A stretch of 63,711 bases of DNA, filler included, from Sluysia triapertura (taxonomy: Eukaryota): NCBI GenBank assembly GCA_046118255.1. It is 5 parts of 5 records of this genome, joined end to end, with 100 filler letters (N's around TTAATTAATTAA, not from the genome) between each part and the next. Parts side by side here need not be neighbours in the genome. Positions count along the whole stretch, not along the records: positions 37,593 to 50,050 come from JBJNIA010107094.1; 4 more parts are not named here. One strand, given 5' to 3'. A program made the position numbers and the translations under genes. Shown piece after piece: positions 16,212-61,600 of the stretch (the stretch's first letter is position 1; each line of letters begins with the position of its first letter). The notes beneath the pieces are model-generated. The model saw only the letters and a list, made by a program, of their open reading frames with translations. It ran no database searches and was not told the DNA's origin.

Positions 16212-16338
16212 TGTTAGACTTCATAAAATGGACTGATCGGGGATCGAACCCAGGACCTCTCGCTATCAGCCCCGTCTAACAATTTTAGATTATTATAGTC
16301 CATTATACCAAATGACACTTTAGGCCTGTATCCCAACA
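16212..16338 (-). mobile_element. Solo LTR of the tRNA-LTR TRIM (internal deletion)
   Basis: Reverse strand reads TGTTGGGATACAGGCCTAAAG...TGTTAGACGGGGCTGATAGCGAGAGGTCCTGGGTTCGATCCCC...GTCTAACA. ATAA on both flanks. Confidence 0.85.
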
Positions 16339-22358: not shown

Positions 22359-22859
22359 TATATTAAAAATTAAAATCGATGTATCATTCAAATTGTAACG
22401 CAGATTCTAAATCTAATGCGGCACAAAATGCAAAAAAGTTATGTTGAAAAGACACTTGTAATAATAAATTTATAATTTATAGCAAATAATAATAATATTA
22501 AATAATAATGATAATAATAATGGTAATAAAACTGTTTAAATATTGTTGTGCATAACCACCAACTGCATTTTATACAATAGTTTAAACAACAACAACAACT
22601 TATGTGCTGTCCCTAACATCTACATTATAATAAAATAACAGCGACATTGAAGTTAATTATTTTAGCGCCAGATCTGACAGTTATTAATATTTTTGCAGTG
22701 TGCTGAAATTAGATTAGATCTCAATTGTCATAACAATTTGGAACAGCAAAATAATGAAACAGAACACAAATTTACACTAAACTAATTATAAAATTGATAC
22801 TATTTATTGATTTGGATACCTGTTAAATATTTTGCATAAAAACTTATTGAAAAATATAA

Positions 22860-26736: not shown

Positions 26737-29700
26737 TAAGCGCTTTTGAGTACTTTCGCGGTAGATATGAGCGCAATATAAATTAATATATTATTATTAT
26801 ATTATTATTATTAAACTTTTCTATTAGTCAAATTGGGTTATAGATTCTTTATACTCAAATTTTACGTTACAAAAGTTTGAAATTAATTAAATTTATCCTA
26901 AAATTAATCTCATAATTCAACAACTGATATTGTTAGGATTGTCCAACTGTTGAACAAGAAACCAGTTAGGAATATGGAATTACAAAATGTCTGAAGAATT
27001 GGTACATTGAATTGATTATAAATATTATTGGAGTAAGAATGATGAAGATGAAAACATCTATAGTAATGTTGAAAGTTGAAGAATACCTTGGAGACTTTAT
27101 AGGGTGTTGAGACCTTATGGAGGCTTGATATAAGTTTCGAAATCCTTTAGAGGTATTAAGGTATATTTGAACTTGTGAACCTTAAAATCAGTTGGAACTT
27201 TATTGACCCTTAAGTAATCTTGAAACCTTTATAAGCATTTGAGACCTTTGAGTAATTCGTAAAGTATTTGAAATCTGTAAAACATTTGAGAAATGGTGTA
27301 ATTCTTACTAATAATGTAAATAAATTTGATTTAATAATTAATAATGTCAAAATGTCAAATCTAAAATAGCAACAACAAATTTCAAATCTAAAAATAATAG
27401 CAAATCTAAAATTGACTATCATAGATAAGTATTAATAAAATAAATTATCGATTTTATGTTATTGTAAAAATAAATTATATTACCTTAAATTTGGTATTAT
27501 TATTATTGATATTATTATTATTGATTATTATTATTATTAAAATGTTAATTCCTTCTGAATTTAAATACTAATGTTGATTCTTTCTAAATTGAAATTTAAA
27601 ATTTAATTATTCTTTTGAATATTCTTTTAATATTCTGAATCTTTTATGTAAGTCAAGGTCATCGTAATAGAGTATAAATATAGTCATTTAATTACAAGTT
27701 TCACACAACATTGTTACACAATTTTGTTTACGAAAGTTTATTTTCACGATTTTATTCCTTAAAATTTTGCTGGTATAATCTTATTCTCGAGTCTGGAATA
27801 TAAATTCGACAACTGTTTTAACTAGACAATCCCTGCTCACAAACATTAGTTTGATTCATTTAAGCCATACTGTTTAGTAAAATTCTACTTAAAATATTTT
27901 TTCTAGAATTGTTTTACACCCCTTTTTAAGAGGCGTGATAACGTTTAATAAAATTAATTAGTAAAGATTATATATTAATCTTAGCAAAATTTTTTATGCT
28001 TATACAAATACAATTGTAAATTTTTATTGATTTGCTTATACATTTCATTAAATTTATTAATTTTTATTCATTTTGCTTTCTAGGTAAGGACGCCGATTTT
28101 ACTCGGACGAAAAAAACAGGTAACCTTTAACTGAAAAAGTAATTAGTAATTAAGGTTTACCGCTTTTGATATACGGTTGTAAATTACCACTTACAATAAT
28201 ATTTGTTATTTGAGTTTTAGCATCAGAAATAATTGAAAATAATATCTAATAAAATCTTTGAAAAGACTAAATAAATACTTAACAAGCTACGATAAATAAT
28301 GCGCAAAATATAAATAACTGTTTTCAAAAAATAAACATACTTATACCTCCATATAAGTTCTTCTAAAATACTGCTTAAAACTTAGCTCTTAAGTGAGGAA
28401 GTCTAAGATTCTAAGGAACTCACAGCATAAGTAAAATAAGAAAACAAAGATTTAGCTTTAGCAATTTAACATGATAATATAAAGAAGTAGAAAAGTAATT
28501 TAGAACCCCTTGATTGCCTTATAAAGTAATAAATAACTTTAGAACCCTAATAAAACCTTTAAATTAAATAAGATCAAGTCTAAAATTAAATAAATTAATT
28601 AAAATGTTAATTAACTTAATTAAGAAAAGGTATGTTTTTGTGAATCATTTTTGAATGCGGAATGCTATGTCAATATTGAAACAGTATACATATTTGTTTT
28701 TGTTGGTCCTTAACTTGAATTCACACAATTATATAATTTTCAAGGGGTTTTTGGAGATTTTATTGTTTTGTATTGTAATATTGATTTAAAGATTTTAGAA
28801 ATTTTAACTAATAATGTTTTTAATAAATTAATATTGCAGAAACGAAAATGATTTGTGTTTGATAAGTAGTTTATGTTTGGTCTCAGATTTTTAGGTTGCG
28901 ATGTAATAGTCAAGACAATGATGGTCATAATAAAATTTAGTAGAAGGTTCTGATGGATGACAGAGTTAGATGCTATTAAGATATGAATTGGATCTACTAT
29001 TATGCATATAAATTTATATCTCAGTTTAGTTTCATCTTTTAAGTCATTAAATGTCAATGACTGATGTTTCGAACTCATTTTATTTATATAAACTATGTAA
29101 TAGCATAAAATTCTTTCTTCTCGAAACAATAAATTTAAGTCTCATATTTCATTTTTTAAAATAAATATAAAAATTTTAAATACAATAAATTTATTACATG
29201 AAACGACATTTTTAGATTTTAATAGAAAGTTTTGCTTGATCTTCAAACATCACCACGTCTCGTTGTACTCCACTGATCCATTCCTTAAATTCATTATCTA
29301 AAATATAAATCAAAAAAGATATAGAATAAGAGCTTACACATGATATCTTACCGCAAAAAGTTTTGTTCATGAATTCGCATGGACTCATTGTGCTTGATTG
29401 GTTGTTGATGACATCGTTAATTGTTGATGTTGTAGTATTAAGATGATCCCATTAATTTGCAATATAGTAAAATATTTTAGCGTGACTAATTTTTTTAGAG
29501 ATGTTAAACGTGTTTCTGAATTATGATTAATTCTATACCAAATTTTGTTTATGTTAAACTTGTAGAGATAAATCTTAAAACCATTTGTAGCATAAATTTT
29601 TAATACAAAGCTAAAGCGAGGCATTACTCTACCTAGAGACAAATCGATTGCGTTCCTTTGTATCATGGTGCTGGCCTTTGGTAGTCTTGATAGACAGTGA

Positions 29701-31634
29701 TGAAATAGTTTAACTTTATACTTCTTTGACATATCATGTAGATTATGCATAATCCGTGTACTTCTGACTAAATCTTTGTTGTCATAGCCATCTAATTCGT
29801 TTTCGAGTACTCTTTCACTAACTAACTGTTCATTCATGATTTGGGATTTTCGATCAGCTTTTTGTTGAACTAGTTCAATGATTAATTTTTTTGTTGTGGT
29901 TTAATTAATGGTAAAGAATTTTTAAAAAATAATATCATAGATGTGGCAATCGGACGAGTTAATTTTGTTAGATTTCGACTATTAAGTAAATCAGTAAAAT
30001 CTTTTAGACTTGATGTATGGGATCTACTATTTCCAGTATTATTAATTACCGGTGTTTCACTATAACTTACAGTTTTATCTTCTTCATAAGCATTCGTTCT
30101 ATGTGTTTCACAGTAAAAACTATCTTCGTCTGGACTACGTGAATCTTCATTACAACTATTCTGACTCTGTAGAGTACTGCAAAAATTATATTGATTATGT
30201 TTGAAAACATCAAAAGGAGTAGTTGTTTGAATATGAGCTTTCTTGTCATTACAAAAAGATAATACGACGTAAACATTTGAAACTTGTTCAGCTTTTCGCT
30301 TTTTATCTTGGCATTTTTCATCAGAGTCATTTGGTCTAAATAATATTATATTCTTTATCGACTGCATGACCAAGATTTATTGTTGGTTAGAAGAGAATAA
30401 TATGATTTGGGTGAAATTTTCAATTTTACAGATAATAACACAAAAGTTTTTTGGTACTAATAATTGTGCTGTTTTTTAGTTTTTGTCTATTGTGTTATTT
30501 GACTTGCCCAATCAGAGTCTTAGAAAGTATATTTAATAATATTGACTCTGATTGGGTAGTGTAAACAAATTGTTGTTATGAAATCAGGAAGATAAAACTG
30601 ATAATTGACACTATAATGAAAAATGTGACGTATAGTGTCAACACTGGTGATGGTAGCAACCAGGTTGATCATCATTTAATTGAGTTTTTAATTTAAATTA
30701 TATTTCATAAAATTAATTTAATGTTTTATAATAATAATAACAATAATATTGTTATTATTATTATGAAATAAAAGTAATTGCATAAAATTTCTTTACAATC
30801 TTAAAAACATGATCTTTTCTTTCTTACATATTAAAATAAAATAACAAATAAAAACTATTGAAATTATGTGAAGGAGCAACGATAACGTGGTATACTGTGC
30901 TTAAGTTATCGTTGTTGCTTCATCATAGGGAAATGAATTCTTTAAAGCTGTATTAAATTAATCTTTGAAGATAAAGGGATGATATAAGTTGTAAGTGAAA
31001 TGAAGAATGTTGGAATAAATTCTTGAGATTTATTTAAGTTTTATAATCAAAAATACGATTTATGCATTAAATATAATGGTTTAAAAGGCTTGTTAATAGG
31101 TTATAGTTTATTTGATTTAAAAGACAATTAAAAAATAAATCTTAGCGTATTTACAATGTTATTGTAGAGTGTTGATAATGGTTATGCGTATTTGAAATGG
31201 GTTTGAATTAGTATAACTTTTTTGAGTTGTAACGTAAATGTTTTCTATGTTTCAGGTTTTTGTTAATGTTGTTGAATGATGTTAATGTATTTTTAACTTA
31301 AATATTATGTGTTGTGGCTGTGGTTTGGTTTGAGGGAATGGCTATTGAGTGAATGTTATAGATTATTCGGTATTAATTATCAAAGTATAGTGTGAGGTGA
31401 AAATTTGAGACTTTTAGACGAATTGTTTGGGAAGTATATGTTGTTGAAGTATAAATGTCGAATATTGTTTATGATTAATCAGTTAATGTAATTCGATAGT
31501 ATGGAATGTGATTGAATTAGGTGTTATGTTTTTTTTGTAAACTGATTGTTGTGATTTGAATGTGTTGAGTAAGATTGACATTAAAAGTTGTGAGATTTTT
31601 AGAAAATTTGGAATTGTGGGTGTTGGCCACTACA
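26737..31634. repeat. Modular repeat family member E2
   Basis: Starts with GCTTTTGAGTACTT (as at 52405). Shares blocks with E1. Ends in a G/T-skewed block closing with GGCCACTACA. Confidence 0.7.
29210..30373 (-). pseudogene. Unknown intron-containing cargo gene in E2
   Basis: Consecutive ORFs 30373-29882 and 29837-29385. GTAAGA...TTTTAG intron at about 29351-29298. Preceded by CCAAT boxes at about 30508 and 30550. Confidence 0.5.
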
Positions 31635-33053: not shown

Positions 33054-33869
33054 TTTTATTTTTCTTTATTAATTCTAGTAATAGTTTTTATTTTTGAAGT
33101 AAAATTTTTATAAAGTTTAAATTTAATAGCTATTTACAAGACCTTAAATCAAACATTTTCATTTCATTTATCTTTTCTAACAGAATTAATATTAATTAAC
33201 ACCTTACGGCCACAATAATAATAATTGTTATTATCATTAGTATTACTGAAATAATAATTTTTATCATTAACATTATTGTTATTACTTCATATTTGTTAAT
33301 AAAGTTTCAAAATTTAATGTAACGTAATACAAACATTAACCATTATAATGCTCTATCAGCATAGAAAGATTCTGAACTTGAAGTTTACAAACTTCGCACC
33401 AATAAAAATTTGTGCTTTTTGCTGATAAGTTATTAGAATGTTCAACTGATAAATAATGATTTTTCGCTTGGTTGTTGGAAGAAAAATTTAAATTACAAAC
33501 AGGACACATTTCTAAACTTTTCTAAACCAAAATTTAGTATAATTAATAAAAATTAATTAATTAATAATTAATAAAATAGTAACAATTTATAAATAAAAAA
33601 TCGATTTTAATAAAATTAAATGAAAAATGAGAAATTAATGAAATACTAAATGAAATGAAATTAAATAAGAAATATTTAAATGAAATAGTAGATGTACTTT
33701 TGTAACAAAATAAAATAAATTTGTTATCTATATTATTTGAACTTTCAACATATTTAAGTTATAAACATTCAATTTTATTACCATCAAGTATTGTAAAACA
33801 TCATGAAATACCAATTATAATTTGCAATATTTCACATGATTCAGTTAAATTATTTAAAAATTAGAAAAT

Positions 33870-34930
33870 TGGAATGTTAGACCAGTGTCGGAAAATGACA
33901 TAATATACTAGCCTAGAAGAAATTCCAAATCTATTTAAAGGGAGAAATTACCACAGAGGATTACAATAATTTATCTGCGATACAAAGATATAAATTAAAA
34001 GAGCCTTTAAATAAATATCTACATATTTATGTTATGGAAAAATCCATGATTTTGTAAGTACTTCAGTAATCAAACATGCAATCCCATGAACTACGGATAA
34101 ACCTATTAAACTATGCCCATGTCCCATACTGTTTCACCGTATCGAAGTAATGAAGGAGGAGATAGAAATAATGCAAAAATACTGCAGACAGCTCCAGTAC
34201 TATTAGTCTAAAAGAAAGATAGCTCCATGACTTTGTATTGATTTCAGAAAATTGAACGAAGTAACAATAAATATCTAATTACTAAGTATAAATTATACGT
34301 TAAATAACCTTAGATATTCTAAAAATTTACCGACAGTAACTTACCTGAAGATAAACGTACGACTTCATTTTCTAGGAAGAATGATTGTTCGAATGAGAAA
34401 AAAAATGCTTTTTGGTTTAATAAAGATGAATGAATTTTGTATTAGCTTAATTCCAATACACGATATTATATGTTCTACAGACTTCGACAGTCACTTAAAA
34501 GATATATTCCTTCGATTAGAAAATGTAAAACTAAAAATAAAACCAACTAAGAGTGATGGGCAAAAGAGAAAGTTGTATTCTTAGGATATAGTGTCACAAT
34601 ACAGAATTTCATCTGACTCGAAAAAGGTAGAAAATGCTAAGCTCTTTCAAAATCCTATTAAGCAAGTGGAAGTACAAGCTTTTTCGCAAATTATTATAGA
34701 AAATTTATAATAAAAAATAATTTTGCAACAATAGTAAAACCGCTAACTGAACTAACCAAAAAGGGAATATAAAAATGTAAAGAAAAAGGTGAATTAATTA
34801 ATAATTTCATTGGGAACGACGTTCACAAAAAATAGCACTTACAAAAGCTCCTATCTTATGATTCTCGGTTATTAAAAACCATTCATACATGTGACAGATG
34901 CTAGCGACTTTGCAATTGGAGCGTTTTTGT
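33870..34930 (+). mobile_element. pol: Highly decayed Ty3/Gypsy RT-RNaseH remnant related to 41250-42280
   Basis: CIDFRKLNEVT, RLENVKLKIKPTK and TDASDFAIGA remnants, with nucleotide similarity to 41938-42008 and 42238-42268. Confidence 0.85.
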
Positions 34931-35070: not shown

Positions 35071-35616
35071 TTACCTTTTAATAACATTGATAATAATACC
35101 TGAATCGTTTTTACATACCACCTTTTTATGTTTATCGCCATTAAGATGTAACTGCATATTACTAGGATCCATTGTCAAATTACACTTTTCACAATAAACT
35201 TTAGGATCTTTTATTAATTTTAAATTATTTAAATAAATTTCACGCAACACTCGTTTATGATGAGATCCTGTTAAATGAGACTGCAAAACTACATTACTAT
35301 CAAATTTCCGTTCAATGTTCGACACAATAAAGGATCCAAAGAACATACATCACTTTTTTCTCTAATTTGATACAATAAATTTTTTCGCAACTAAAATAAA
35401 ATAAATAGACAAAATACTAACTCACTTTACGAGATGATCAATAAACACTAAATGTTTTTTCCACTCTTCATGTGTTACACATTCAATATTACAGATATTA
35501 CATTTATAATTATTTCTTTCTAAAATTTTCAAAGCTTTTTGGTGTGCATCATATATTGTTTTGGAATTGCAAGATATTTCACAAATATCACAATTATAAG
35601 GATCATATTTTGCCAC
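35071..35616 (-). pseudogene. Tandem matrin/U1-type C2H2 zinc-finger protein (ZNF385/ZMAT/ZFR-like), frameshifted
   Basis: CDICEISCNSKTIYDAH, CNICNIECVTHEEWKKHL, FDSNVVLQSHLTGSHHKR, CEKCNLTMDPSNMQLHLNGDKHKK. A 35-40 nt GT-AG intron ends at 35391. Confidence 0.8.
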
Positions 35617-36964
35617 GCGAAGTGTAAAAAGGACGCTTTTTAAACGTCATAATATAACTAAAGCGACACCATTAACATAAAAGTATAAGGATTTATTGAA
35701 AATATTCACAAAATTTATTTTAAAGATACAATAACTGTAGCAAATTCGTTAGTAATAACGTAAAATAATTCTGTAACAGATGCATTTGCGGATGAAAATT
35801 ATTAATTTTATCGATATCCTAAAATAAATATGAAATTAAAATACTTAAAAACTCTTTTTTCATGGGATTAATTATAAAATAAAAATAATATACTTTTAAG
35901 CTTTTCAAATAAATTCTATAAAAAAACCCCATTATATAATAATTTTACATAAGTATTTTAGTTACATTTAAATAAACAAATTACATTTAAATGATTTCTT
36001 GTTTTTAATAAAAACATTTTTACAAAATTAATTAAATTCTTGACATCACAAAACCTCAATAATGAAAATTTTCGTTTTTACCGACGCATTTGTTAAATTT
36101 AAATTTAACTCAGTTTAATAAAAATATAAAAATAATAAATTTTGTTATATATTTGAAGAGTTACTGTTTAACGAAATATAAAAAGTATTAATTTCTTATT
36201 AAAAATTTGTTGACATCATACTTTATAAGAATTATTGCATTTTAACATCTGTAGCGCTCTCGAACTATGTACTTAAAGAGTGGTAGATGATTGACTACAA
36301 TTAAAACAAGGAAAGGAGCAGAACTTGAAAATTTTATCAAAATATTTATCAGTAATGATTAAACAATCATAATAATATTAAAGTATAATAAATTTTATCT
36401 TTCTAGGAAAATGAAGCCAAAAATAAATTTAAGATGCGTATTTTATTTAATAAATTATCAAATATTTTTCGAAGTCAACACATAAAATCAATATAAGTTT
36501 TCAATATAAGTATGAAAAGTCACAAAGTCACCATTATATTACTAAAAACAAATCAAGGAATCACTTATTAATTATGGATACATATTTAAATGATGATTCA
36601 TATTTATCTCAAAGTATAAATCATTCTTTTCGTTTTATTTTCACTTTTTTTAAATTAAATTATCTTAGAACTTAGTTTTGAAAGATTTGAAGCTGGCTTA
36701 AAGCCTGACGATACTAATAGAATAGATTTTACATGGTCAGTTAGCCCCTTAGTATCATTTAAGATCAATTAAATAAATTAAACATTGCATTGATTTTTTC
36801 CGTTGAAATATGTTATACTAGTATGAAAAGCATAATATTAAAACTTAAACATATAGTAAATATTATAATATTAACAATTCCTACTGTTCGGTTGCCATCA
36901 CAACCCTACAAAATAATTTTAAGATGACATAATTATTTAAAAATATTTAAAATCATGAAAAAAT

Positions 36965-37592: not shown

Positions 37593-38536
37593 GATTATAT
37601 AAATGATTACGGTTATCCATCAATGAATGGAAACCATGAGGAAGCATCAATGACTTCCGCAGTTATAATAGCGTATATTAAGCCTTCCGACGATTTAAGA
37701 AAATTGGACGAATTAATAAATGATGATAATGATGTTGCTTAGATAGAACCCTATGTTCATTACTAAGATAATTAATGGAAGACAATAAAGTTATAGATAA
37801 CCATGATGAAAGTAGAATTATAGATATTACCAATGATAATGATGATTACACTGAAGATAAACCTGACTATATAATAGATTTAAATAAAAATCCACATACT
37901 GAAACTGAAGATAAAGAAACAAATACTTTTAAAAGAAGGCCAGGTAGACCTAGAAAGAATAATGGTGACGAAACAATAAGACCAACCCCAATGCATAGAA
38001 AACCAAAATTACTTATAAGAACATAGAAGAAACCTTAAGTACGAAAACTATAATTTATGCTCTACTATCTAATAAATTTTCTAACTTTGATAAGTATAAG
38101 ACACTTTTACCTAAATTAAAGGAATACAAAATTGCATTAACTAAGATAATTAATGTTATGGAAGAAAAATATATGAATACAGACATAAGTGACTTTATAG
38201 ACAACGATCAATATAAAAACATAATAAATAAACAGATTAACGCTGGAATTAATAGGGACAGACTTAAAATAATAATGACTTACATAATATTTCAATGCAA
38301 TAAGGCTACACTCTTAATTAAAGAAAAAATAGATAAGATTATAAATTTTACTGATAAGAAATTAGGTACTCTGATTGAACAATTAGGAGGATGAAAAAAT
38401 ATTATAAAAGACAAAGATAAAGAAAAGGAAGAAAAGAATATTTTAAATGAACCACTTAACATGATATCCCGACTAATTAATAATAATAATAATAAAGGAA
38501 ATACAAATGGATCATTCCCACGATTCAATAAATAAT

Positions 38537-40520
38537 ATGTTACTTATAATTGTTTTACTGGCATTATTTGGAATTCATAAGACTAATGCTATAAAAGCTT
38601 TTGATTGTAGCCAACCCCAAATTGAAAGAAAGTTCTCTTTATTAGATACCGAAGACTGTCCTAAATCAAGACCAAATAGAGTCAAAATAAAAGACATGAA
38701 AGTATTAAATGTTTATCAAGAAAGAAATCTGGTTACGACACTAGTTAGAGAATGTTTAGTCAAAAGATCTGTGGTTATTTGGTATTGTGGACATCACAGT
38801 CATTCTTCAATTATTGATATATCGAATATATTAAAACCTTTTAAAATATCACCGAATAATTGTCGTGATGTATTCGAAACTGGATACATAAGTCTAAACA
38901 AAGGAGATAAATTAAGAATTAAAAATAATGAGAAAATAATTTATAATATTAGAACAGCTGATAATGTACTAATAGATGGTACGTGCGAAAGAGGATCAAT
39001 AGAATACAAAGGGAAAATTTATACAATTTAGTAGCTCAAGAAACCTATGTAGTAAGTCTAAAATCTTATAACGAAAGTTTTAATTTAGAAAAAGGTACTA
39101 TGATGTCTAGATCTTTTTGTAGAAGTAATCAAACAAGTTGTGACACTGGTGAATCTATACACATATGTGAATTGGAAAATTTTCAATGTCCATTAATATT
39201 CTTAAAACAAATTAAATTTAATTTAATAGAAGGATTTATGTATCAAAATGAAGATGAATTAGCTATAGAAGAAATAAACAAAAAACAAATTTATAAAGAT
39301 AATTTAGACATACGAGAAAGAAAAAGACTTCATGAAATCGAAACTCCAACAATTCTAATGGCGAATGAAGAAGAAGATGGATTAATATTTGTAGCAAAGA
39401 AATTAGTAATTAGATGCGGACTAGAAATCACAGAAACAAACTATTAAGGAATATATTTATCAGAAAAGACAACATTACAAGCTAAGAAAGGAATAGATAC
39501 AAAGAATTTACAGTTGAATACATATTTTAATAACAAAATTGACTTTTATTACCATTTAGGACTTATGTCACTAGAAAAAGTTTATCAAGCTATGATAGCT
39601 AGAGATTGTCAATTAAACAAAGAAATATTAAGAACGAAGTTAGCAGTAGCAATAACTAACCCAGACTTAGTAGCACCATTACTTCCGTTAGAAGAAGGAG
39701 TATTTGGTAGACTGATGAGTGAAGTTTTATATACATACAAATGTAATAAAGGTGGAAGTACTAATGAATTACCAGTAATATGTAAAAATCAAAACACTTA
39801 TTTAGAACCAGTTACTAGAATTATTGTGCCAACTAATAAACTAAAACCAAAACACTGCACTGATCTAATGTAATGGCTCCAGAATATAAAATCGATGATA
39901 ATCTTTGGATATCTTTACCACACAGAAGTCAAGTTAAAACACCAGAAATTATAGGGTTAACAGAATTAAAAACAAAATTAAAATTTTCAACTACAAAGAA
40001 CATTCCAAGATCAGGAATCTGTTCTAATGAAGATATTCAGGCAGCTTGGCACGAAATCTTATTTCCAATTAAAAGATCTAAAGTACCTACTGATATAGTT
40101 GATAAAGCAATAGTAGAAAAAGATGGCAAAATAAATTTTGAATTACTATTAGGACATGATCACTTGAAGAAAGCAGCACACAATACTTTAAAACAAATTT
40201 GGGGAAATTTTTTAGTTATAGGTCAAGCTTTTTCAGGTTTAATAGGAATATATGTATTAATTAAAGTTATTGCTCTTGTAATCTCTCAAATATTTTCAGT
40301 TGTAGGTATTTACAAAATATCAGGCTTTACGTGGAAATTAATAATTGGATGCTTTCCATTTTTAGCTAAGTTCTTATTACATCATCATGCTCATGCTCTA
40401 TTAAATGCTTTAAAGAAAGAGAAAGAACAAAGTGAAGAAATTGCATTACAAACAATAGATACTGAACCAGTTAAAAAAGAAAAGCAAAGTCTATATCAAC
40501 CACCTCCAAGCAATCTAATT
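38537..40520 (+). pseudogene. env: Chuvirus (Jingchuvirales)-like viral glycoprotein
   Basis: Signal peptide MLLIIVLLALFGIHKTNA; AFDC...SLLDTEDC; C...WYCGHHSHSSII; CQLNKEILRTKLAVAITNPD...EVLYTYKC; NELPV...LEPVTRII; C-terminal hydrophobic segments. Split by stops and frameshifts. Confidence 0.82.
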
Positions 40521-40579
40521 TGTATTGTGCTAATAATAATAATTATTATTGTGCTAATAATAAATATAACAGTGCACGA

Positions 40580-40890
40580 AGTCCCATGGTAGATATGAGA
40601 GTTAATGGTAGAATGCTATCTTCATTAGTTTATACAGGAGCAGTGGCCTCATTAATAAGCGAATCATTATTAACCACTAAAGAATTAAGCAATTTAGTTA
40701 AACAACATTCATATTTAACAGGAATAACTGGAGATGAAATTGAAATTCTAGGAGTGCTAAAATATTATGTGAAATTGGACAAAATAAAATTGAAATAAAA
40801 TGCAGGGTCCGGAAGATATGATATTAGGCATGGATGTACTATCACAATTAAAAGGAGTTTCATTAGATTTTAGCAAAGCAAAATTAATGG
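40580..40890 (+). pseudogene. Retropepsin protease 1
   Basis: PMVDMRVNGRMLSSLVYTGAVASLIS (DTG changed to YTG at 40631), LTGITG, DMILGMDVL. Confidence 0.85.
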
Positions 40891-41249
40891 ACACCTATAC
40901 TGATAGACCAATAGATGACGATAATGTTATAATAGAAGAACCACGTTGGTTACTCAAAAGAACAGAATGCATAACACCAGGAAAAAAATAGTGTAAGAAA
41001 TGGCCAAATAATGTCTATAGCCTCGAAAAATAATCAAGAAAAATTAAACATAGGCATTGCTAATTCAATTTGTAAAATTAATGATGGAAGTATACCAATA
41101 AGAATAATAAATTATACAGATGAAAATAAATGGTTATATGCAGGTACAAAACTAGGATAAATAGTTAGCTATAAATTGCAAACACAAATAAATATAGTAT
41201 AAATATATGATAAACCAAGAAATAAGAACATAAAACTACAAAGAAATAT

Positions 41250-43745
41250 CGAAGATGAAGAAATAAAGAATAAGAATTTAACTAAACAACAAAATGAGAT
41301 ATTATACAAAGTCATATACAGATATCCTTGGCAATAGCTAGAAAAAAATATGATATTGGAGATTCCATCATAATAAAACACGAAATTCCGTTAATATAAG
41401 ATAAATTAATTAGAAAGAAACCTTACAGAATTCCATTATGTAATCAACAAGAAATGAAAGATCATATAGATACAATGAAAAAGGTTGGAATAATTAGACC
41501 AAGTTTTTCTCCATTCTCATCATCAGTACTACTAGTTAAGAAAAAAGATGGGACTATGAGATTCTGAATGGATTTTAGAGAACTAAATAAGATAACAAGA
41601 ATAGATGTGTTTCCTCTACCAAGAATAGATGAGATGTTAGATAAATTAGGCAACGCTAAATATTTTACTGCACTAGATCTTCAAAGTGGCAAATAGAGAT
41701 CGCTGAAAAGAATAAACATAAAACAGCATTTTCATGTGGAGATGAGCTATATGAATGTGAAAAGATGCCATTCAGATTAACAGGTGCACCGGCGACATTC
41801 CAAAGATGTGTGAATTTCGTATTGTTTGGTTGTAAGAATGTTATGGTTTATATTGATGATATAATAATATTTTCAAAGGATTTTGACACTCATGTAGTAG
41901 ACAGATAATACACTCAAAAGACTCGAAGTGGCAAGATTAAAGATTAAGCCGACTAAATGTTTATGGGCAGAAGAACAAGTCGAATTTTTAATGTCATATA
42001 GTGTCACATAAAGGTATAAAACCAAATCCAAAAAAAAGTCACCAGATAATGTAAAGAAAGTTCAAAGTTTTCTAGGATTAGCAAATTATTGTAGAAGATT
42101 TGTAAAAGATTTTGCGAAAATAGGTAGACCTCTAAGAATGTTAACATTTAGATGGAATAAAGAACAAACAAAAGCATTTATTAACAACCGCACCAATACT
42201 AATGTTCCCAGATATGAGCAAACCATTTATATTAAGAACAGATGCTAGCTACTTTGCAATAGGAGCAATTCTGGGACAGAGAAATAAAGAAAACTTAGAA
42301 GGTGTTATAGCTTGCGCGAGTAGGAGGTTAAATAAAGCTGAATGCCTAGAAATTGTATACGCATGTAAACTATTTAGACACTATCTATTAGGACAAAAAG
42401 TACTCATATACACCGACCATAAACCATTGACATATTTATTAAACCACAGAGATGAAGTGAGTCGATTAAATCGATGGTTTACAAAACTAGCAGAATTTGC
42501 CGAGTGTATGTCCAGATTAACAAATACCGATGAACAAGGGAACGTAAATTTTATACAAATAATGTCAATTTGTGGAAAGGCTGTAGAGCCAAAAGAAATA
42601 ATAAAACATCAAAAAGGAGACGAAGAAATGTAATATGCCTTCGAAGCAATAGCAAAAGGATTATTAAACGAAGATCAAGCTAAAAAGATGAATGGAAAAC
42701 AATTGTACCAAAAACTCTAATAACACCATTATTAATTCAATATCATGATGGACAATATGTGGGCATTTTTCAACGAGAAAGACATCATCAAGAATTAAAA
42801 ATAAATACTATTGGGATAGCATGGAAGACGATATTAAGAAGTGGTGCAAGAACTGTGCTATCTGCTGCAGAAGAAAGAATACTGGGATAAAAACAAAAGT
42901 ACCACTAAGACCAATACCCATACCACTCTCTTCAATGAAATTCACTGCAATGGATATAATGGGACGGTTGCCAGAAACAATAAATGGAAACAAATGCATA
43001 ACAGTATTCGCAGATTATTTAACAAAACGGCCAGAAGTTTACCCGATACCAAAGCAGAAAGCTGAAACAGTGGCACAAATATTAGTAGAAAAAATAATAT
43101 ACATATATGGAACTCCGAGAAAATTGTTGACTGATCAAGGAACCAATTTTACAAGTGATGTGACAAAGTCTGTTGCAAAATATTTAATATTTTTAAAAAT
43201 ATTCAATCGAACATTAATAAATATGCTACAATTGTATGTAAACGAGAAACAGAAAGATTGGGACTTATATATATCACCATGTTTGTTAGTATATAGAAAC
43301 TCAGTGCATCCTGCTACCCACTTCACACCATTTTATCTTATGTACGGTAGACATTCAAACATGCCACTAGATTTAGATTGAGTACCACCTTTATCTCAAT
43401 ATTCAGAAACTCCTGAACACGTTACTATTATGAGAGAAAATTTACAGGATGCATGGAAACGCGCTGGATTGCAAATACATTATACACAGGAAACATAAAG
43501 ATAACTATGACAAAAAGGCAAACGATCATAATTTCAAAATAGGAGATAAAGTATTGGTAGATTATCCAATAGCAAAACCAAGATATTCTCTGAAATTACA
43601 CAAACCGTTTAAAGGACCTTATGAAGTAATGAAAACAACTTCTACTAATTTATATATAAAGAATCCTAAAGATATGAATGCTGAAACTTTCGTTTTGTAT
43701 GTATATCGATGTAAACTAGCACCAAATGATGAGTATAACTTGTGA
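41250..43745 (+). pseudogene. pol: RT, RNase H and integrase (Ty3/Gypsy pol)
   Basis: LVKKKDGTMRF, FPLPRIDEML, YIDDIIIFS (41849), LRTDASYFAIGA, YTDHKPL, CxxC, AMDIMG, LTDQGTNF, KGPYEV. The segment carrying the catalytic E appears deleted. Confidence 0.95.
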
Positions 43746-43869
43746 GATAGAAACGTTACAAAAAGTGTATTAAAAGTTATGCCAAGAATTAAGGATAGAG
43801 ACAAACCATCTAAATCATTAGGTATACCATTCAAACCAACAAACACAGATGCAAAACCAATTAATACAA

Positions 43870-44200
43870 TAAATATGACAACTTCTTTTAATATACAAAA
43901 TCATTTAGTTCAAAGTATTAAGTTCAATCAAAAATGGGTACGAGCAGTCATAGATACAGGCTTGAATAACACTATTATCAATTATAATGTACTAAATGCT
44001 TCGGAAATTAATATGTTACAACAAGCTGGCATACTATTATTTGCAGTGGACGGCTCACATATTTTATTTAATGGAATGTTACAGTATCAATTAACTCTCT
44101 TAGATGTGTATTTATTCATAACAATACTAGCTTGGGAATGATGCCCATATGATATTATATAAGGAATGGATGTATTAAGCAAATTGGAAAATGTAGTAAT
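43870..44200 (+). pseudogene. Second retropepsin protease downstream of integrase
   Basis: IKFNQKWVRAVIDTGLNNTIIN (DTG at 43953), LFAVDGS, and DII..GMDVLSKL after a frameshift. Confidence 0.8.
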
Positions 44201-45033
44201 ACATGGAAGATTAGGATATCATGTAGTGTTACCACAGTTAGTTTTACCTCCAATGCCAAGAGAAGTGCAACCATTACAACCGCAAAACTACCAAATTGCT
44301 CCACTAAATCCAATAATACCACCATCACCAACTCCAAATTGGGAAAATTTTGATTGGTGGGATACCAAGGTTTCTTCAACCTCGGATATAGGAACAGATA
44401 ATAAAGATAATGATAATAATACTACCGATAACAATACTAGTTATATCATTAGCGGTAGTAGTATAATGTTTATAAGAGGAATTCCAAATAACATATTTCT
44501 TTATATAATAACTTTCATATTATTTCTATTTCAATTGACAACCATGATAACACATTATCCAATAAATTTAACAAGTTATACCAATACTAAACAAGACATT
44601 TTCCTATCGAATACTTTCAATAGATTTTGGACAGCTGAAATTGATAATAGAAACGAATTTCTGATTGTAATTTTGATATATTGCATATATTTTGAACCAT
44701 TAATAATAAAGAAACATTCGATGATAGATAATATTCTTAAATGCGAACATTTAATTCAATATACCACAATTATAGCATATACACCTTACAATAAGACAGT
44801 AACAATCGACTTCGTAGACATTTTTAAGAAAAGATATAAATAATACAATAAGTACACCATTACCTACTACAACAAACAAAATAACGAATATTACTACCGA
44901 CCTAAGTAAGAAAATAAGTAGGACAAATAGGCTGGAAATACAAAATGTCTTTACTATAATCTATATGATATTTACTATTTACTACATAATCACTTGTAAT
45001 AGAGTTATAAGAGTCAATAATAGATTACCAAGT

Positions 45034-45675
45034 ATGATGTTACTTACTTTATTAACATTAATTTCAATTACGAATGCGTCACAAAGAGTTTACTAATCGA
45101 AATACTTGGATTTTTATAATTTCGATACCGAAGTTCAAATTAAGGTAACTAGGAATATTAAAGCACACTACATAGGTATTAATCCGTCAAGACTTAATTT
45201 TAGCATATGAGATTTACACAAACATATTCTACCCAACACAGAGTATCCAGTAACAATATGTAAAGATTATTTACTATCTGAAGACAGAAATATAATAATA
45301 TTTATTCAACGTCAGGCTAAAATTGTTAAACAACTTAATTTTGCTATTCAAGGAATTAAAGAACCAACTACAATTACAGATACATTAAAAAAGGATCCAT
45401 CAATAGCTATTTTAGTAATCGCTGCTACATTATTTATTATTGCAATGATAATAACTTTACTAATGATTATGATGTTCATTATGAATAAATGCAAATATAC
45501 TAATTCTGATTCAAATAATGATGATGATAACTATTATTCTATTCCAAAAAATAATAGATTTTATGTCCCTCCTCCAGGACCACCATTACCGTCAATAATG
45601 CTATCACCAATATACGAATACAATACAGACTTAAGATTAAACATTATAGTGAATTACAAATATCATCGGCGTTAA
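45034..45675 (+). pseudogene. Type I membrane protein (accessory)
   Basis: One frame with two stops: signal peptide MMLLTLLTLISITNA, ~110-aa ectodomain, TM IAILVIAATLFIIAMIITLLMIMMFIM, tail with YYSIP, PPPGPPLP and IYEY. Confidence 0.6.
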
Positions 45676-46772
45676 TATGTATTTGTCTAATAACAACTAT
45701 AGATTCATCTGATATAACCATAAATAAGTTAAGTGAGAAATTGTTTTAAAATAATATACAAATAACTCTTCAAGCCAAGACTGACATAATAGTAGTTGTA
45801 GCATGCAAACAGATGAGAAGTTAGTTAGTTTATCTATTAGATGTTGCTTAAATAAGTTATGTACTACTTCCACAAAAAAATGGATAGTAACCTGTGAAGA
45901 TTTATTTTAATCCCAATTATATCAAGTAAAAATTACAATTGAATTAATAAATCGGGTAATACATGCACAATATTATTGGTTAACACAAAGCCTTATGTAT
46001 TCTAGGATAAATTTAGTAAATAATGGATGAACTGTTCCATAACAGCGTTAACCAATGAAATCGACTTAATTAAGGTAACTAATCCATTATCAAATAACTC
46101 AATTATAATAAGATATGGAACTGATAAAGAAACTGTTTTAGAACTAATTCTACCGAAACGCACGACTATGCTGAATTTCTATCCCCAGTCAACCTTTTCA
46201 ATTATATACTCTTGGATACTTAATGCTAATGAATCAATAAAAGCAAACGACTGGTCAATCACGCGACAATATAATTTTGTTATACCCATTATTAAGGAGA
46301 CTACCAATACTAAACTAAGAATATTGTAAGAAAGTCAATAATAGCTAAGAAAACAATTAAAATACCAAATAAATTTACTAAAATCAGCTTAATTAACCTT
46401 AAAATCTCCAAACACAATAATGACATTAAAGAGAAATTTAAATTCAACATTCATCTTTGCATCATTACATTCACACTTTATGCTTTGCTTACAGTCAATC
46501 TTACAACTGAAGCCAGAAAAATATATTTAGGATCACTTCATAAAATAACACCCTTAATTAAAGTGTAGAGTTGAACAATACATAAAAGTTACGAGTGACC
46601 GATGTTGACGGTTGTTTCCTGTCCAACCGGTCACCTAACTTTAAAAATTTTCGTAGTTTTTAGCAATTTACATAATTAGGATTATAACTATAGTATTTCA
46701 ACCAACAATTTAATTAATTTTAAAATATTATTATCTTATTATATTTTTATTTTTTCTTATTAAATTTCAGCA

Positions 46773-46952
46773 ATGTATTTTATTCGGTGTTCTATTTGTC
46801 AACGTTCTATACATAAGCATTATACAAAGACACATCCATGTTTACATAAATTTCACTTTAAATGTACAATTAATCTTTTTCATTTCTCATTCACGGAATA
46901 CATGAGTTGTCCATTATGTAGAACTTCTAGAGAGGAAATTCAAGTTTTCTAA
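46773..46952 (+). CDS. RING-H2 finger protein (59 aa, below the ORF-track cutoff; probably frameshift-truncated)
   Basis: C-x2-C-x13-C-x-H-x2-H-x2-C-x14-C-x2-C: CSICQRSIHKHYTKTHPCLHKFHFKCTINLFHFSFTEYMSCPLCR. The ATG lies 3 nt after a TTTCAG acceptor. Confidence 0.85.
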   Translation: MYFIRCSICQRSIHKHYTKTHPCLHKFHFKCTINLFHFSFTEYMSCPLCRTSREEIQVF

Positions 46953-47371
46953 AGGGTAAATTTAGGCATTCTTATATCTTAGAAAAAATTCCATTTAATA
47001 TTTTTAATCAGCGAATCGAAATTCAAGAAGTTGTGATAACCCAACCAGAGTATATTAGATAACAAAATAATAAACATTCAATTAATACACAACATCTTAA
47101 TTATCCTCCTAGGTTGTCAAAATCCCAGAAGCATAATCGGAGTTGCAGACAAATACGACATCCGTATAAAAAGGCGGGTTTATATAAGAAGAACAATATA
47201 GCAAATCCATTTTTAAAGAAAAAACTTAATTAACTCAATTTTCATGAATCTTTTATTTTTCCTAAAATACATAAATAGGTAATAAATCAAATAAATAAAT
47301 TTACATTAAACTAACAATAATTTTAATATACTAATCTTTATATTTCTTATTGTTTCACTTTTCCTTCAGAA

Positions 47372-48600
47372 ATGAGTACAAATCAAACAAAAGCAAGAAT
47401 CATAAATAACATTATCCCCTTCTATAATGGCATTGACCGATTCTGCGGTAATAATGAATTTCTTTCTTCAAATATTATCCCAAATATATTAAAATGTAGA
47501 TTGACGATGCGTTCTTCACGCATTTGTTTTGAATTGAAAATATTCAATCTCCTACCATTGTGTGTTAAAGGGAATTTTCCATTAATAATATACCTGTGAT
47601 AATTGCAGCAGCTAGGTTGACTTTAAAAATAACTATTAAAATAGATGGGATTCCAATATTATCACGAATTCAAGGGTTTTCTTCTTTGTTGATCACCAAT
47701 ATTATACAAATACAGGCAATCGAATTCCTCACCACATTCGCAGTACTTTTAGCGCAGTTAGAAAAACCACTAGATCATAAAAAGCGTCCTTTGTTGTACC
47801 ATAAGGACGAGGTCAACCTATATAATTGGCAAGAAGAAATAACGTATTCTCATAACACAAAGGGGATTTTATTTTCGTATCAGTACAATTTGCCTTCGGG
47901 TTTGATGAATAGGCATCACATACTTAAAATGTGTTTTATGCCCTATCATTAATTATTTCATGGAGAAGTCTTATTAAGACCTAGGATCCGCATAAAAACT
48001 TTTTAACCGTTGATCATGGGATGAAAGAGGATCACTTAAAAGATGCCAAAGATTTGTCCCAAATTAGAGATTTTTGGCTAGCTGCTCTTAATGATAAAAT
48101 TCTGGTATCCACTTTCCCAGAATTAATAATTAAGACACTGCACATCCCATATGGTTGGTTAAGGAGGATCATTAATTTAACTTGCACTAATTTAGTGTCA
48201 CAGACTTCATTAAACCCCATTACGAAGACCCGAAGATTACTAAAATTATTATACCCTTTTCCTCCAAAAGTAACCTGTCACCAACTTGTTATCTCCAAGG
48301 ATCCCTCATTTTTGCCACAGATCAATGATATTAATCTTACTTTACCTGCTATTCCAAGCACTTCTTTTACTGAATCACAAAACATACCTACAATACCTAC
48401 AATGCGGATGAAACTCCACAAAGAAACTACGAAAACATACTTCTCCGTCAGTTGACCTAGATGTCACTGGGAACAATTTCAGAAGGCAGAAAACACCAAT
48501 AAGGAAGATGGTATTAACTATATAAATGAAGAAGACATTGATTGTATTGATTATGATGACAGTATTTTAAACGACATTTTTGATTTTAATATTCCCTTCA
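47372..48600 (+). pseudogene. Accessory ORF with a DEDDh (REX4/ISG20/DnaQ-like) exonuclease-like segment
   Basis: GEVLLRPRIRIKTF/LTVDHGMKEDHLKDAKDLSQIRDFWLAALNDKILV at 47962-48110. Expected acidic catalytic residues are not evident. The ATG follows TACTAAT...TTTTCCTTCAG. Confidence 0.5.
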
Positions 48601-48634
48601 GAAATTAGGGACTAATTTTCCCTAATGGGTAAGA

Positions 48635-49200
48635 TGTGTTGTGTTTATAAGTTATGTTTACAAATCAAATTTACATACAAATTTACGAATTATATATGTG
48701 TACAAATTATATAAATATACATAATTATTGATTTGTCGATTTTTGTAAATTTATTGTTAATTTATATTTAAGTGGAAAATTTACATCTTCGGAATTTTAT
48801 TGGAATTTTAATTGCAGTTTTATAAAAAAAAGGGAAATATTAATATTATCATTTTTATTGATCATTATTAGTGTTAAATTATTAATTTTATTATAGTTAA
48901 AATTTTTAAAATTATTTTAAATTTTAAATAATTAGTTTGACCTCAAGGTCATTTTTTAATATAGAAGCAGTGAGATTAGGTTTCATTGACACAATATTTA
49001 GACACAATCTTTATACACAATTAAGAACTTGATTAAAATAATGATTATTAAAAGTTTATTTTACATCCAGAAAAGTAGCATAAATTTATACAACCTCCAT
49101 AGACTTTACGTTTTTACTTTGAAATCCAACGGCTAACTCTAACCGGTAAGCCTAGTGCGTTAGTGGACTCACCGTGAGTTTGCTTTATATATAACAATAA
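48635..49200 (+). repeat. Putative 3' LTR of the large Gypsy element
   Basis: TGT follows the gypsy-type tract TTAGGGACTAATTTTCCCTAATGGGTAAGA. Candidate ACA ends at 49196 or 49212. No 5' LTR in the window to confirm. Confidence 0.55.
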
Positions 49201-50050
49201 TTCTACCACACAATTAGATGAGTATGAATCTCCGCATATTCTAAACTTAATAACAAAGTTCTTTTATAAAATATAATTTATAAATTAGTCTTTTAATAAA
49301 AAATTAATTGATATACATAAATGTTAGTAACCCAATAACAATAACTTAGCAACAAAAATTTAAGACCCAACAAATAACAAACAAATCAAGCAAAAATAAA
49401 GTTTGGTCATATATTAAAAGAAATTTAAGATTCAATCAGTGTTTTCCACAACTACCTTCTTACAACAGAGGAAAATTATAAACTTATTGTAATAATTCTT
49501 GTGCTTATGGTTATTTATGTGGTGTTTAGATGATTGCTAGAAATGCGGGACTTAATTATTTTGCATTTCGACAACACATGCTTATTTCTTAGAATCAGTT
49601 TTATGCCGACCAATTTTAATAATCAAATTTGAACATTAATTATTATCTGGCAATTATCAAATGATATTGAGTTTTATGATAAACTCATGTATTTAGAATA
49701 ATAAAATCAAAATTTAACATTTTAATAATACTAATTGATACAATATATAAATTAATGTATTTCATATTTCTTTTATGTAATTATAATGCAATCCTTATGT
49801 AAAATTAATGTATTTCAGGTTTAAATAATTTAATATTTTAATAGTTATTATTTTAATATTTTAATAATTATTATAATAATTGATAAAGAAAAGGAAAATA
49901 TTTTATTATTGTAATTATTATTAAATTATTAAATTTCATTATTATTGTATTATTGTTGCGTCTTTAAAATCTGTTAGTTATTACAACTCAATATTATTAT
50001 CTTGATCAGCTTAAACCTTAATAATTTCAATAGTCAGTATATCAAGTATA

Positions 50051-58503: not shown

Positions 58504-58666
58504 TGTTGGGGCAAAAAGGCCTAAAAAAAAGTGCCAAGTAGTATAATTGAATATAATGAAAATGAAAAAGTTAGACGGGGCTGATAGCTCAGTGGTAGAG
58601 AAGTCGAACTGCGCAGCGATGGTCCCGGGTTCGATCCCCGGTCAGTCCATTTTACGAAGTCTAACA
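58504..58666 (+). mobile_element. Solo LTR of the tRNA-LTR TRIM
   Basis: TGTTGG...GTCTAACA flanked by the 4-bp duplication GTAT (58500-58503 and 58667-58670). Confidence 0.88.
58578..58649 (+). tRNA. tRNA-Ala-like gene inside the LTR (best-preserved copy)
   Basis: Acceptor GGGCTGA/TCAGTCC with G3:U70 and A73. A box TAGCTCAGTGG, T arm CCGGG-TTCGATC-CCCGG, TTTT terminator at 58650. Anticodon arm irregular. Confidence 0.7.
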
Positions 58667-61600
58667 GTATTATTTTATCGAACCTTTAACATTTTTGTGA
58701 CAGTTAATTTAATTCTGTGTATAAGTACATTTGATTATTAAGTTTTCTTTTAAAATTAAATAATTGAAGTAATATTGTTATCCTGAGTACTAACTAACAT
58801 TTTGATTTAAGTTGTATAATCGAATTTTGTGTTTATTTTAATAAATAGTTTATGATATCACTGTGTTTTTGATAAGTAATAATCATTTTAAAATTTGTAT
58901 ATTTATAAACATTTAACGCAGATAATTTTTGAATAAAATAATATCTAAGTTAACATTTCATCTTTGAATCGTGATTATACGTCATTTATTTCTAAAATTA
59001 TAATAAATTAAAAGAATTCAATTGCAATAAGTGTTTAAAAATTGGAAATACGTAGAGCCAAGAATTAATTTAAATATAAATCTCCAGTTTTATCTTTCTT
59101 TTCTTGAGCTTCGAATCTATGTGCTGACCCTTCGGTGAGTAAGTCCAGTATCATAAAGAACATAAAATAAGAATAAAGAAACTAATCCAAAAGCAAATAT
59201 CTATCTTTAATCACCAAATATTCACAATATATTAAAATTTTCATGCAAAAGATTTAACTACGAATAATAAACCAGACAAACATATGAAGATAAACGTCCT
59301 ACAATTCGAAAATTCTGCTACATATTTAATGACAATTTAAAGTAACCACATCCAAAATATATATATTTAACTGTTAATGAACAACTATTACTTGCCTGGA
59401 AGATATTTTAATCAGAAAACCGCGAAATTATAATTTTTTTGGTTTTATAAGCTCTAAATATAGGAAAATTTAATTTTAGTTTAATTTTAGTTTTTATGGT
59501 AAATGGTCGTTATTAATCTTAAAAAAGGATGGCGCTTAGAGAGCTTATTGAAAGTAATTATGGAAATATTATCTTTTGAAAAGACTACTTTATCAAGGTG
59601 AGGTTTTAATGTTATGGAAAAACTAAATTGAAAGCTTTAATTTTAAACATAACACACCATTTAAAATCCATAATTAGCACAGAAAAACAAATTACATTTA
59701 TAATGTAAGGTTGTAAATTAAAATTTTTGTATAAAATTTATATTTTATTATTTATTTTATATTTTATGCATTTTTTATTTTATGTTTCGTGCATTTATTA
59801 AAAATTATAAAAATTACTATTTAAAAAATTACAATTAACATTATTTTAAAAATTATAAATAAAATTTAATTATTTTAAATTACAAAGAAAACAAAGGATA
59901 TTAGAACCGGCTGTTTTTATTAACAAAATTTTTAATATGGTTCCTTACAGTATATAAAGACGTAAAAAAATAGTGACAAGTTAATCACACAAGTGGTAAC
60001 CATTTTAATTATACAAGTTGATGATATAAAGTGTAACACTGCTGTACGGAGAACAATTCAATTCAAGTTATTATATTAAATTCAATTGATTATATTCGAC
60101 AATTGGTCTGTATTGACGAGATAAACTTTTATATTCGGCAGCACCATTAATTTTATCAAAACAAATTAGTTATCAATTAAGTAGTAAGTTTAATTTTAAT
60201 AGACTGAAAACTCGTAAGAGTTATATACTTAAACTTTTCTATTTTCAATTGGTCCTTAAGATCAATAATAAAATATTGTCAAATAGATAGAGACTTCGAA
60301 CTAGATCGAATTAAAATATTATTGCTATTATCATTATTATTTTATAATTTTGTTTACATTATTAAACTCTGTTTTTTTTACTAATGCATACATTTATCGG
60401 AATTTTTGGTAAGCTATTTTAACATTTTTGATAATTAACTTTTGGTAATGCTTGTTGTTATTTATAATTTAATTAACATTTAAGTAGTTCTTAGAACGTA
60501 TGTATTTAAGGCTGTTTGATCACTTTACTATCTAGGATAAAATTATACAAGACTTGACATAAATATATATTAGTGTTAAAGACTTTAATTTAAACGAATT
60601 TCGTAATACACGTCATAGTAAAAGACATTTTTATGTTATTCTTTAAGCATACTTTCACGTTACTTACAGATACACCATTGGTAAGTGGTGTACTGTGAGC
60701 GGACTCTGAATATTAATTTATTTTGCTGTTAGGTAAGTTTTTAGTTAAAAGAATAAAACAGTCAGTAATAAGAATTCACTACACTGTCTTCATTATTTTC
60801 TATCACAGTTTCTCGAATGTGATGTTTAAGCAGGAATATCCTGTCATTTTTAAGAATAGTTACGAAGTTTGTGCATATCAAGTTATCAATATTTCTGAGT
60901 TTCCTTCTAGAAGGAAAATAACTAACAAAAAATTTAATACCCGAATCGCTAAATTTGTTGTTCATCATTTTATATATTGAACGACTTATAAAATAGCATC
61001 AATTTTGCTTTTTTAATTTAATTCTTTTATTCACATTATTATTAAAAGAAGTTACGAACTCTAAATAGCTAATTTATTCATTTCAACTCAAAAATTAATC
61101 AAAACTTTTTTTAGATCTTTAATTACTTTAGGTAACTATAAATGTTGAAAATAAAACCAAGACAAATATCCGTTGGTTAAGGCAGTAACTAACTTATCTA
61201 TAACTGATTTAATTTTAATCTCGTTTTTATTAATGTCACGAAATCTAAATCACATAAAAGAGAATTTCTATAAAAACTTGAAATACTAGAAGAACATAAA
61301 TGACTTCATAAAATAAATTTATTAACACATTCGTAAAATTTTGAAAACTAAGACTATTAAATTTATAACCTAAATGAATTTTTTGTTCATCAACAGAAAT
61401 TTTATTAATAGGTTCTAAAACTTTGTAATCCATAGATTTATTTTTAAAATCATTATTTAAAATATTGTCTCTATTTATAGTATTTGGATTTGATTCACCC
61501 GATCTATCTGTTATGTACATGCCGACATGGTTGCACTTTGCATAAATAAGTTTGGCAAAGTTTATTCAGATTCTAAAATTAACTTCAAAACGAATTCAAA

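Follow-up and report, generated by a model that had tools for sequence, protein, structure and literature searches.

The window analyzed here is a 63,711-nucleotide (nt) stretch of DNA from Sluysia triapertura (assembly GCA_046118255.1), made up of five contig-like pieces with 100-nt spacers between them. The piece at positions 37593-50050 very probably holds a decayed, 5′-truncated Ty3/Gypsy retroelement, likely of the Burro type, in which a glycoprotein (G) stands before protease (PR), reverse transcriptase (RT), RNase H (RH) and integrase (IN), and whose intact relatives are encoded as one giant reading frame. The observation of a glycoprotein ahead of PR-RT-RH-IN on one strand is confirmed, as Pfam matches on the plus strand run in the order PF24664 glycoprotein, protease, RT, RNase H, integrase and SH3-like end. 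An earlier sequence-only reading had described a ~660-codon glycoprotein leading directly into PR-RT-RH-IN on the same strand with no long terminal repeat (LTR) between them, and both the Pfam order and a repeat search bear this out. All features of the element described below are on this strand, and the element reaches past 38537-43745 at both ends.

The Monjiviricetes-type fusion glycoprotein (38537-40500; Pfam, tblastn and hydropathy) is present as four fragments, with a length of ~660 codons counted from 38537 to about 40520. Three of the four fragments match PF24664 (Monjiviricetes_fusion, 653 profile positions) in profile order, at 38537-39028 (E 1.8e-22, profile 6-163), 39448-39870 (E 2.7e-17, profile 292-430) and 39864-40589 (E 7.2e-29, profile 429-633); the remaining fragment, 38965-39444, has no PF24664 match, yet aligns to relatives by tblastn. 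The signal and transmembrane (TM) segments reported earlier were recovered in part, with a signal sequence, an ectodomain and a TM segment near 40215 standing. A further hydrophobic run, at 40518 in the frame of G, is spurious: intact relatives have no counterpart, and it arises from translating an imperfect AAT-rich tandem duplication in the linker between G and protease (40516-40576; repeat search). Because in relatives the signal sequence ahead of G lies within a longer open reading frame (ORF), the ATG at 38537 probably does not mark the beginning of a gene.

With the C-terminal fragment of G as query, a full HMMER search yielded 271 proteins at E<=0.001. Among the best 150 of these, the closest relatives of G are retroelement polyproteins (33-47% identity), with stand-alone G proteins of ~650 amino acids (aa) at only 21-32%. 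The G tree (FastTree), built from the 119 of 160 stored proteins that passed 75% coverage, likewise groups the window G with retroelement polyproteins, its rows carrying no virus names. Atlas look-alikes of G include gB and rhabdovirus G, all below 0.9, and a PDB sequence search with G returned no G match, as all 36 rows were proteases. The label "chuvirus-like" given to G by the sequence-only reading holds only at the level of the class-wide Pfam family PF24664; a specifically chuviral origin did not emerge from these comparisons. With a Gypsy pol and a gB-type env (PF24664) found upstream of it, the element is classed operationally as a GAG-ENV-POL errantivirus of the HSV/gB type.

Downstream of G, a first retropepsin-like protease with a degenerate catalytic motif (40571-40991), RT with RNase H (41319-42630) and integrase with H2C2, core and SH3-like C-terminus (42702-43745) were delineated by Pfam and alignment, and each is broken. 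Gene order and the type of RT and integrase indicate Ty3/Gypsy (Metaviridae) among the profiles used, and pol is closest to Gypsy-type polyproteins among the references compared. The contig start at 37593 truncates the 5′ end of the element (gag, LTR side), and Gag with its CCHC knuckles and the Ubi/SUMO-like domain are visible in relatives, not in this 5′-cut copy. No long direct repeat that could represent an LTR was found in the piece 37593-50050.

Intact relatives and the junction between glycoprotein and protease

Relatives were collected as proteins (P-numbers) and as loci in metagenome contigs (L001, L002 and L003). In 14 upper G matches scanned for domains, chosen mainly by length, PF24664 was found in 14/14, a retropepsin in the same ORF in 11/14, and RT as well in 3; P0001 also has G and protease joined. 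Two more proteins came from cluster look-ups: P0159, of 4,844 aa, which contains ankyrin and as many as seven protease stretches, and P0162, of 3,003 aa. An alignment-based DNA scan gave at least three loci in metagenome contigs, among the 594 candidates listed there; in viral and prokaryote contigs it gave none. Single-fragment scans of metagenome and viral contigs gave no matches. L001 has a 5′-open ORF of 3,426 aa from before G to past integrase, followed downstream by a separate RNase_T-family ORF (E 1.4e-5). L002 encodes gag, a zinc knuckle (zf-CCHC, E 1.4e-5), a ubiquitin-like domain (E 0.0047) and a Bcl-2-like domain, then one in-frame stop, then G, and L003 encodes gag-G-PR-RT-RH-IN-tail in a single ORF of 2,693 aa. 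In total, six relatives (P0011, P0016, P0159, P0162, L001 and L003; 2,627-4,844 aa) carry G through integrase within a single ORF. The order across relatives is (Gag, zinc knuckle, ubiquitin-like, Bcl-2-like)-signal-G-TM-protease(s)-RT-RH-IN-(protease)-signal-immunoglobulin (Ig)/fibronectin type III (FN3) ectodomain-TM-tail.

Several observations on individual relatives are recorded here in their own right. The stop in L002 (3058-3060) is the lone in-frame stop of an otherwise open 4.2-kb contig, separating the gag-ubiquitin-Bcl-2-like ORF from G, and may be either a mutation or a read-through signal. L003 (440-8521) is a more distant, compact member with 42% GC, in which no LTR pair was found in the contig and in which integrase is followed by a signal, a Cys-rich ectodomain and a TM segment without the FN3-like pattern discussed below. 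P0016 is intact; its database entry calls it a hypothetical protein from a Flavobacteriaceae metagenome-assembled genome, most likely a misbinned eukaryotic contig. Retropepsin-like domains occur several to a polyprotein, both before and after RT-IN, together with C2H2 fingers and ankyrin (P0159, P0015, P0011, P0026). L001 (2-10282) carries an additional signal-FN3-like-TM cassette between two protease domains inside pol, beside its C-terminal tail.

Between G and integrase the window copy is colinear with P0011, P0016, P0159 and P0162, with a mean identity of 37-41%, and also with L001 and L003. Against those four intact proteins, 8-12 frame changes lie between its aligned pieces and 10-18 stops lie inside them; the copy is dead, with every part broken by stops and frame changes. 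At the junction, the protease ORF at 40475-40795 (RVP, E 0.0017, below the cut-off) overlaps the end of the last G fragment and is in the -1 frame relative to it, and the ORF frames here agree with the earlier description. The distance from the motif preceding the TM segment to the protease motif is ~144 codons in the window; of the 14 relatives tried, 13 had the motif, with 131-214 codons in 12 and 391 in one. Since the relatives are open across the junction, the spacing matches, and the copy contains many other frame changes, the -1 offset is most likely a product of decay rather than a programmed shift. The single ORF in six relatives and the matching spacing also uphold the env-pol order, the one-polyprotein organization and the native junction proposed from the sequence, and on these sequence comparisons we regard the G-protease junction as native.

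The G tree and pol identities place the window copy among the same polyproteins. The window falls in a 16-row G clade (support 0.90), where a downstream protease motif is present in 12 of the 15 other rows, the remaining three terminating within 12 residues; all 14 rows with a downstream protease motif fall in a 21-row G clade (0.986). The tree includes near-duplicates (P0013/P0159 and P0010/P0162). The N-terminal part of RT shares 51-54% identity with six G-polyproteins, compared with 39% for L003 and 38-46% for four gypsy elements without G. Integrase shares 50-52% with five G-polyproteins and 54% with P0002 and P0003, compared with 41% for L003 and 34-39% for the four G-less gypsies.

Domains flanking the glycoprotein-integrase core

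Upstream of G, an acidic linker at 37772-38026 with a basic GRP-containing motif, recognized by eye, is likely part of the same polyprotein; similar motifs were seen by eye upstream of G in P0011, P0013, P0015 and L002. We take this motif to be AT-hook-like. The ORF that follows, at 37999-38394, is likely a Bcl-2-like helical domain preceding G, with a stop inside its C-terminal motif. This assignment draws on Pfam and profile matches of relatives and on spacing. Pfam Bcl-2 is matched by P0012, P0020 and P0021 at the corresponding place (3/4 aligned rows, best E 2.5e-5), and a four-row profile including the window matches Bcl-xL at E 3.6e-4. When the profile was built from five relatives and left the window out, the ORF ranked second of 425 ORF pieces (E 0.041), the top-ranked being an unrelated AT-rich piece. 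The distance from the Bcl-2-like ORF to mature G is 71 codons in the window versus 52-82 in four relatives, and a model of the ORF (pLDDT 68) has seven helices. Between PR and RT, a segment at 40975-41196, in the position of the dUTPase-like domain of Burro, is conserved in relatives, aligning to P0159, P0011 and L001.

Downstream of integrase, a second retropepsin-like domain (43746-44201; weak Pfam, relatives) continues in the frame of the integrase C-terminus with one stop between. It matches the post-integrase protease of P0003 at E 2e-6, and both P0011 and P0159 align across the integrase end and this domain. The tail (44163-45675; hydropathy and the layout of relatives) has hydrophobic or signal segments, a likely FN3-like remnant at 45211-45399, a TM segment at ~45403 and a cytoplasmic tail, and the same layout is found in P0002, P0003, P0011, P0016, P0159, P0162 and L001. 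A profile of the relatives' tails gave FN3-containing receptors in 16/18 PDB rows (best E 0.008). The tail model of P0162, from which alone the Ig/FN3 fold is read and whose stretch, like the other tail stretches, was picked by eye, shows a seven-stranded domain resembling Ig/FN3 sandwiches at Z 6.7-8.6, with root-mean-square deviation (rmsd) mostly 2.3-3.5; such middling Z values speak to fold and not to function. Foldseek with the tail model gave no match at E<=0.001, and the window tail remnant did not match the relatives' tail profile significantly (independent E 0.45). An FN3-like pattern occurs in 6/6 protein tails and L001, in 0 of L003 and in 2/425 window pieces, a count that is circular because the pattern was drawn up with the window in view. 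Taken with the layout of the relatives, a fibronectin-III-like ectodomain remnant in the window tail is likely.

Two further ORFs may belong to the element. A RING finger at 46764-46952 (zf-RING_2, E 9.1e-7, above the cut-off) is probably an accessory ORF, its membership being judged from position. A possible remnant of a DEDDh-exonuclease accessory ORF lies at 47569-48455, where the likeness of the stretch at ~48000 to the L001 exonuclease ORF is weak (E 0.009 pairwise, E 1.8 tblastn).

Published systems, alternative explanations and possible function

The planarian element Burro/GYPSM1 is described as one ORF of 4,873 aa containing Gag, Ubi/SUMO-like, BCL2-like, env, PR, dUTPase-like, RT, RH, IN and ankyrin parts, and its env, in frame between gag and pol, has multiple matches to mononegavirus fusion glycoproteins (Arkhipova and Yushenova 2019, PMC6431247). 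The same account reports decayed Burro-type fragments with stops and frameshifts in Dugesia japonica. The window shares with Burro a mononegavirus-like env followed by PR-RT-RH-IN, along with a likely BCL2-like domain ahead of env and probable accessory ORFs, and further Burro-like traits are present in relatives, including a ubiquitin-like domain (L002), ankyrin (P0159), Bcl-2 (three relatives) and a single ORF (six). The Gag, MATH, BIR and ankyrin parts and LTRs of Burro are not in the window, whose 5′ end is missing; extra proteases and a post-integrase FN3/Ig membrane tail are, for their part, not mentioned in section 7 of PMC6431247. An identity with Troyka was also considered and dropped, as Troyka is defined by termini (PMC12440569) that are not visible in the contig.

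A survey of Gypsy GAG-ENV-POL elements with gB-type ENV covers nematodes, bryozoans and flatworms and also records 114 arthropod elements in which gypsy POL is accompanied by a chuvirus-like G; it describes ENV types as largely host-specific and argues for an ancient association (Chary and Hayashi 2026, PMC13524379). The window element resembles Schmidtea errantivirus 1-6 of its group Platyhelminthes_C1a in gene order, ENV type and ENV motifs. In the ENV sheet of that survey, YQES, typical of the window's G family, is found in Schmidtea rows only (4/4), and CDTGES, present in the window, in one row, also Schmidtea (1/1); the looser motifs YQET and TNY match other groups too. The survey lists intact copies, whereas the window copy is decayed, and its main text discusses neither a single polyprotein nor fibronectin domains nor additional proteases ("polyprotein" and "fibronectin" 0 occurrences each, "protease" 1). 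The 18 nematode ENV rows in its supplement are, by eye, unlike the window G. Anakin, a mosquito element with a chuvirus-like G of the same broad family, belongs to BEL/Pao, whereas the window element is Gypsy (Dezordi 2020; PMC10084718, PMC13524379). The independent capture inferred by the sequence-only reading gained no support here, nor is the arrangement new: the in-frame env of Burro was published in 2019 (PMC6431247), and GAG-ENV-POL elements have been surveyed and an ancient association argued (PMC13524379). The env-before-pol order is real but already published, and the window contributes one more member, in decayed form. Env also stands ahead of pol in a metavirus in the case of the nematode endogenous retroviruses described by Sacco et al. 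2022, which reportedly have a continuous gag-env-pro-pol ORF. What may remain as novelty, beside a possible host outside flatworms, is the post-integrase fibronectin-III/Ig membrane tail, which, together with the extra proteases, was not found described in the literature consulted; further Burro papers, supplements and Repbase may describe both.

Several results weigh against a Burro-type assignment. Because L003 shares the layout at only 39-47% pol identity, layout alone is no proof of lineage, and trees of RT, RH and IN did not resolve the relatives. The Burro link draws on domain order, motifs and a by-eye likeness to supplement sequences. The contig contains no Gag, LTRs or target-site duplication (TSD). 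No Pfam match was obtained for the window's own Bcl-2-like row, and Foldseek with its model gave no match at E<=0.001; in a wide fold search, 12/50 rows were of the Bcl-2 family at Z 3.8-5.2, under unrelated top rows, 11 of the 12 covering 105-115 residues at rmsd 4.5-5.6. A four-row profile search found no dUTPase fold in the PR-RT segment.

Three alternative accounts of the arrangement itself were considered. A separate env product with pol reached through a programmed -1 ribosomal frameshift after G would explain the -1 position of the protease frame and its overlap with the end of G, and is nonetheless very unlikely, as the offset is just one of 8-12 frame changes, the relatives are in frame throughout, the overlap falls in the tandem duplication, and no canonical slippery heptamer was seen by eye in the G frame. 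Endogenous viral elements carrying Jingchuvirales G are often flanked by Gypsy fragments, with no clear capture reported (PMC10084718), so a chuvirus-derived G might have been inserted beside, or misassembled onto, an ordinary Gypsy pol. The sequence-only reading had named a nested insertion or misassembly among the findings that would overturn it; we consider either highly improbable, since G and pol both have their nearest relatives in one set of polyproteins, whose order and spacing they match, and no TSD or LTR was found between G and pol. The idea of a host gene domesticated from env or the Bcl-2-like part finds a precedent in the IAP-like part of Burro1, said second-hand to help planarian stem cells (via PMC13465017), and can hardly be credited here given the stops and frame changes in every part.

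The identity of the host lineage is a separate matter, compatible with the preferred reading of a decayed Burro-type element. The G motifs and low GC (28% in the piece 37593-50050, 23-26% in the other four) make a planarian or flatworm host probable: these motifs match Schmidtea rows only, ENV types are largely host-specific (PMC13524379), planarian genomes exceed 70% A/T (PMC11410931, PMC13238120), and Burro1, whose anti-apoptotic RING-BIR part is cited from triclads, is called planarian-specific (PMC13465017). We hold it tentatively possible that the same element and mechanism represent a Burro-like lineage outside triclads, in an arthropod or other invertebrate. The neighboring pieces hold only mariner/Tc1 remnants, a tRNA-like short interspersed element (SINE) repeat, and zinc-finger and RRM-like fragments, with no host marker found; where a phylum is recorded, most of the Atlas clusters closest to G belong to Arthropoda; and the ENV-POL search of the survey covered non-insect genomes only (PMC13524379). 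If the host were not a flatworm, the element would suggest that a lineage regarded as planarian-specific is more widespread or has moved horizontally.

The domain order and the relatives' single ORF, read in the light of established polyprotein biology, suggest how an intact member might work. The polyprotein would be made at the endoplasmic reticulum, where an internal signal, itself cut by signal peptidase, would direct G to the lumen, and the chain would come back to the cytosol at the anchor of G. Retropepsins would free Gag and the enzymes, the tail would become a type I membrane protein through a second internal signal, and G would supply a fusogenic envelope for enveloped particles, while the Bcl-2-like and RING parts may dampen host-cell apoptosis. 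The window copy is capable of none of these steps. The FN3/Ig membrane tail is kept in 7/7 main-lineage relatives with the tail examined. The entry mechanism of gB-type errantiviruses is described as unknown, and herpesviruses need gD, gH and gL beside gB (PMC13524379); the Ig/FN3 tail would be a concrete candidate for the missing entry partner of the gB-type ENV. That Burro-type elements are full enveloped viruses, with the FN3/Ig tail, freed from the polyprotein through internal signals and the extra proteases, serving as an attachment protein (or cytokine-receptor decoy) that partners the gB-type fusogen, in a lineage reaching perhaps beyond flatworms, is a speculation that we consider rather unlikely. 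As a by-product, the analysis points to intact public relatives of 2.6-4.8 thousand aa with a variable number of protease domains and a conserved Ig/FN3 membrane tail.

Neighboring pieces

Another piece contains, at 33733-34929, a second decayed Gypsy RT/RH remnant that is more distant. An RRM-like intronless fragment at 19819-20259, perhaps akin to RBM15/Spenito, is followed by three short repeats. Zinc-finger exons with U1/matrin-like matches and a broken ORF lie on the minus strand (35071-35646 and 29385-30376); the end of the broken ORF, which has no Pfam match, we assume to be BESS-like. Mariner/Tc1 remnants were found at 8113-8888, 21592-22359 and 904-1754, with terminal inverted repeats common to several pieces, and tRNA-like SINE copies at 4768-4920, 15467-16264 and 58528-58674, two of them inverted ~670 nt apart.

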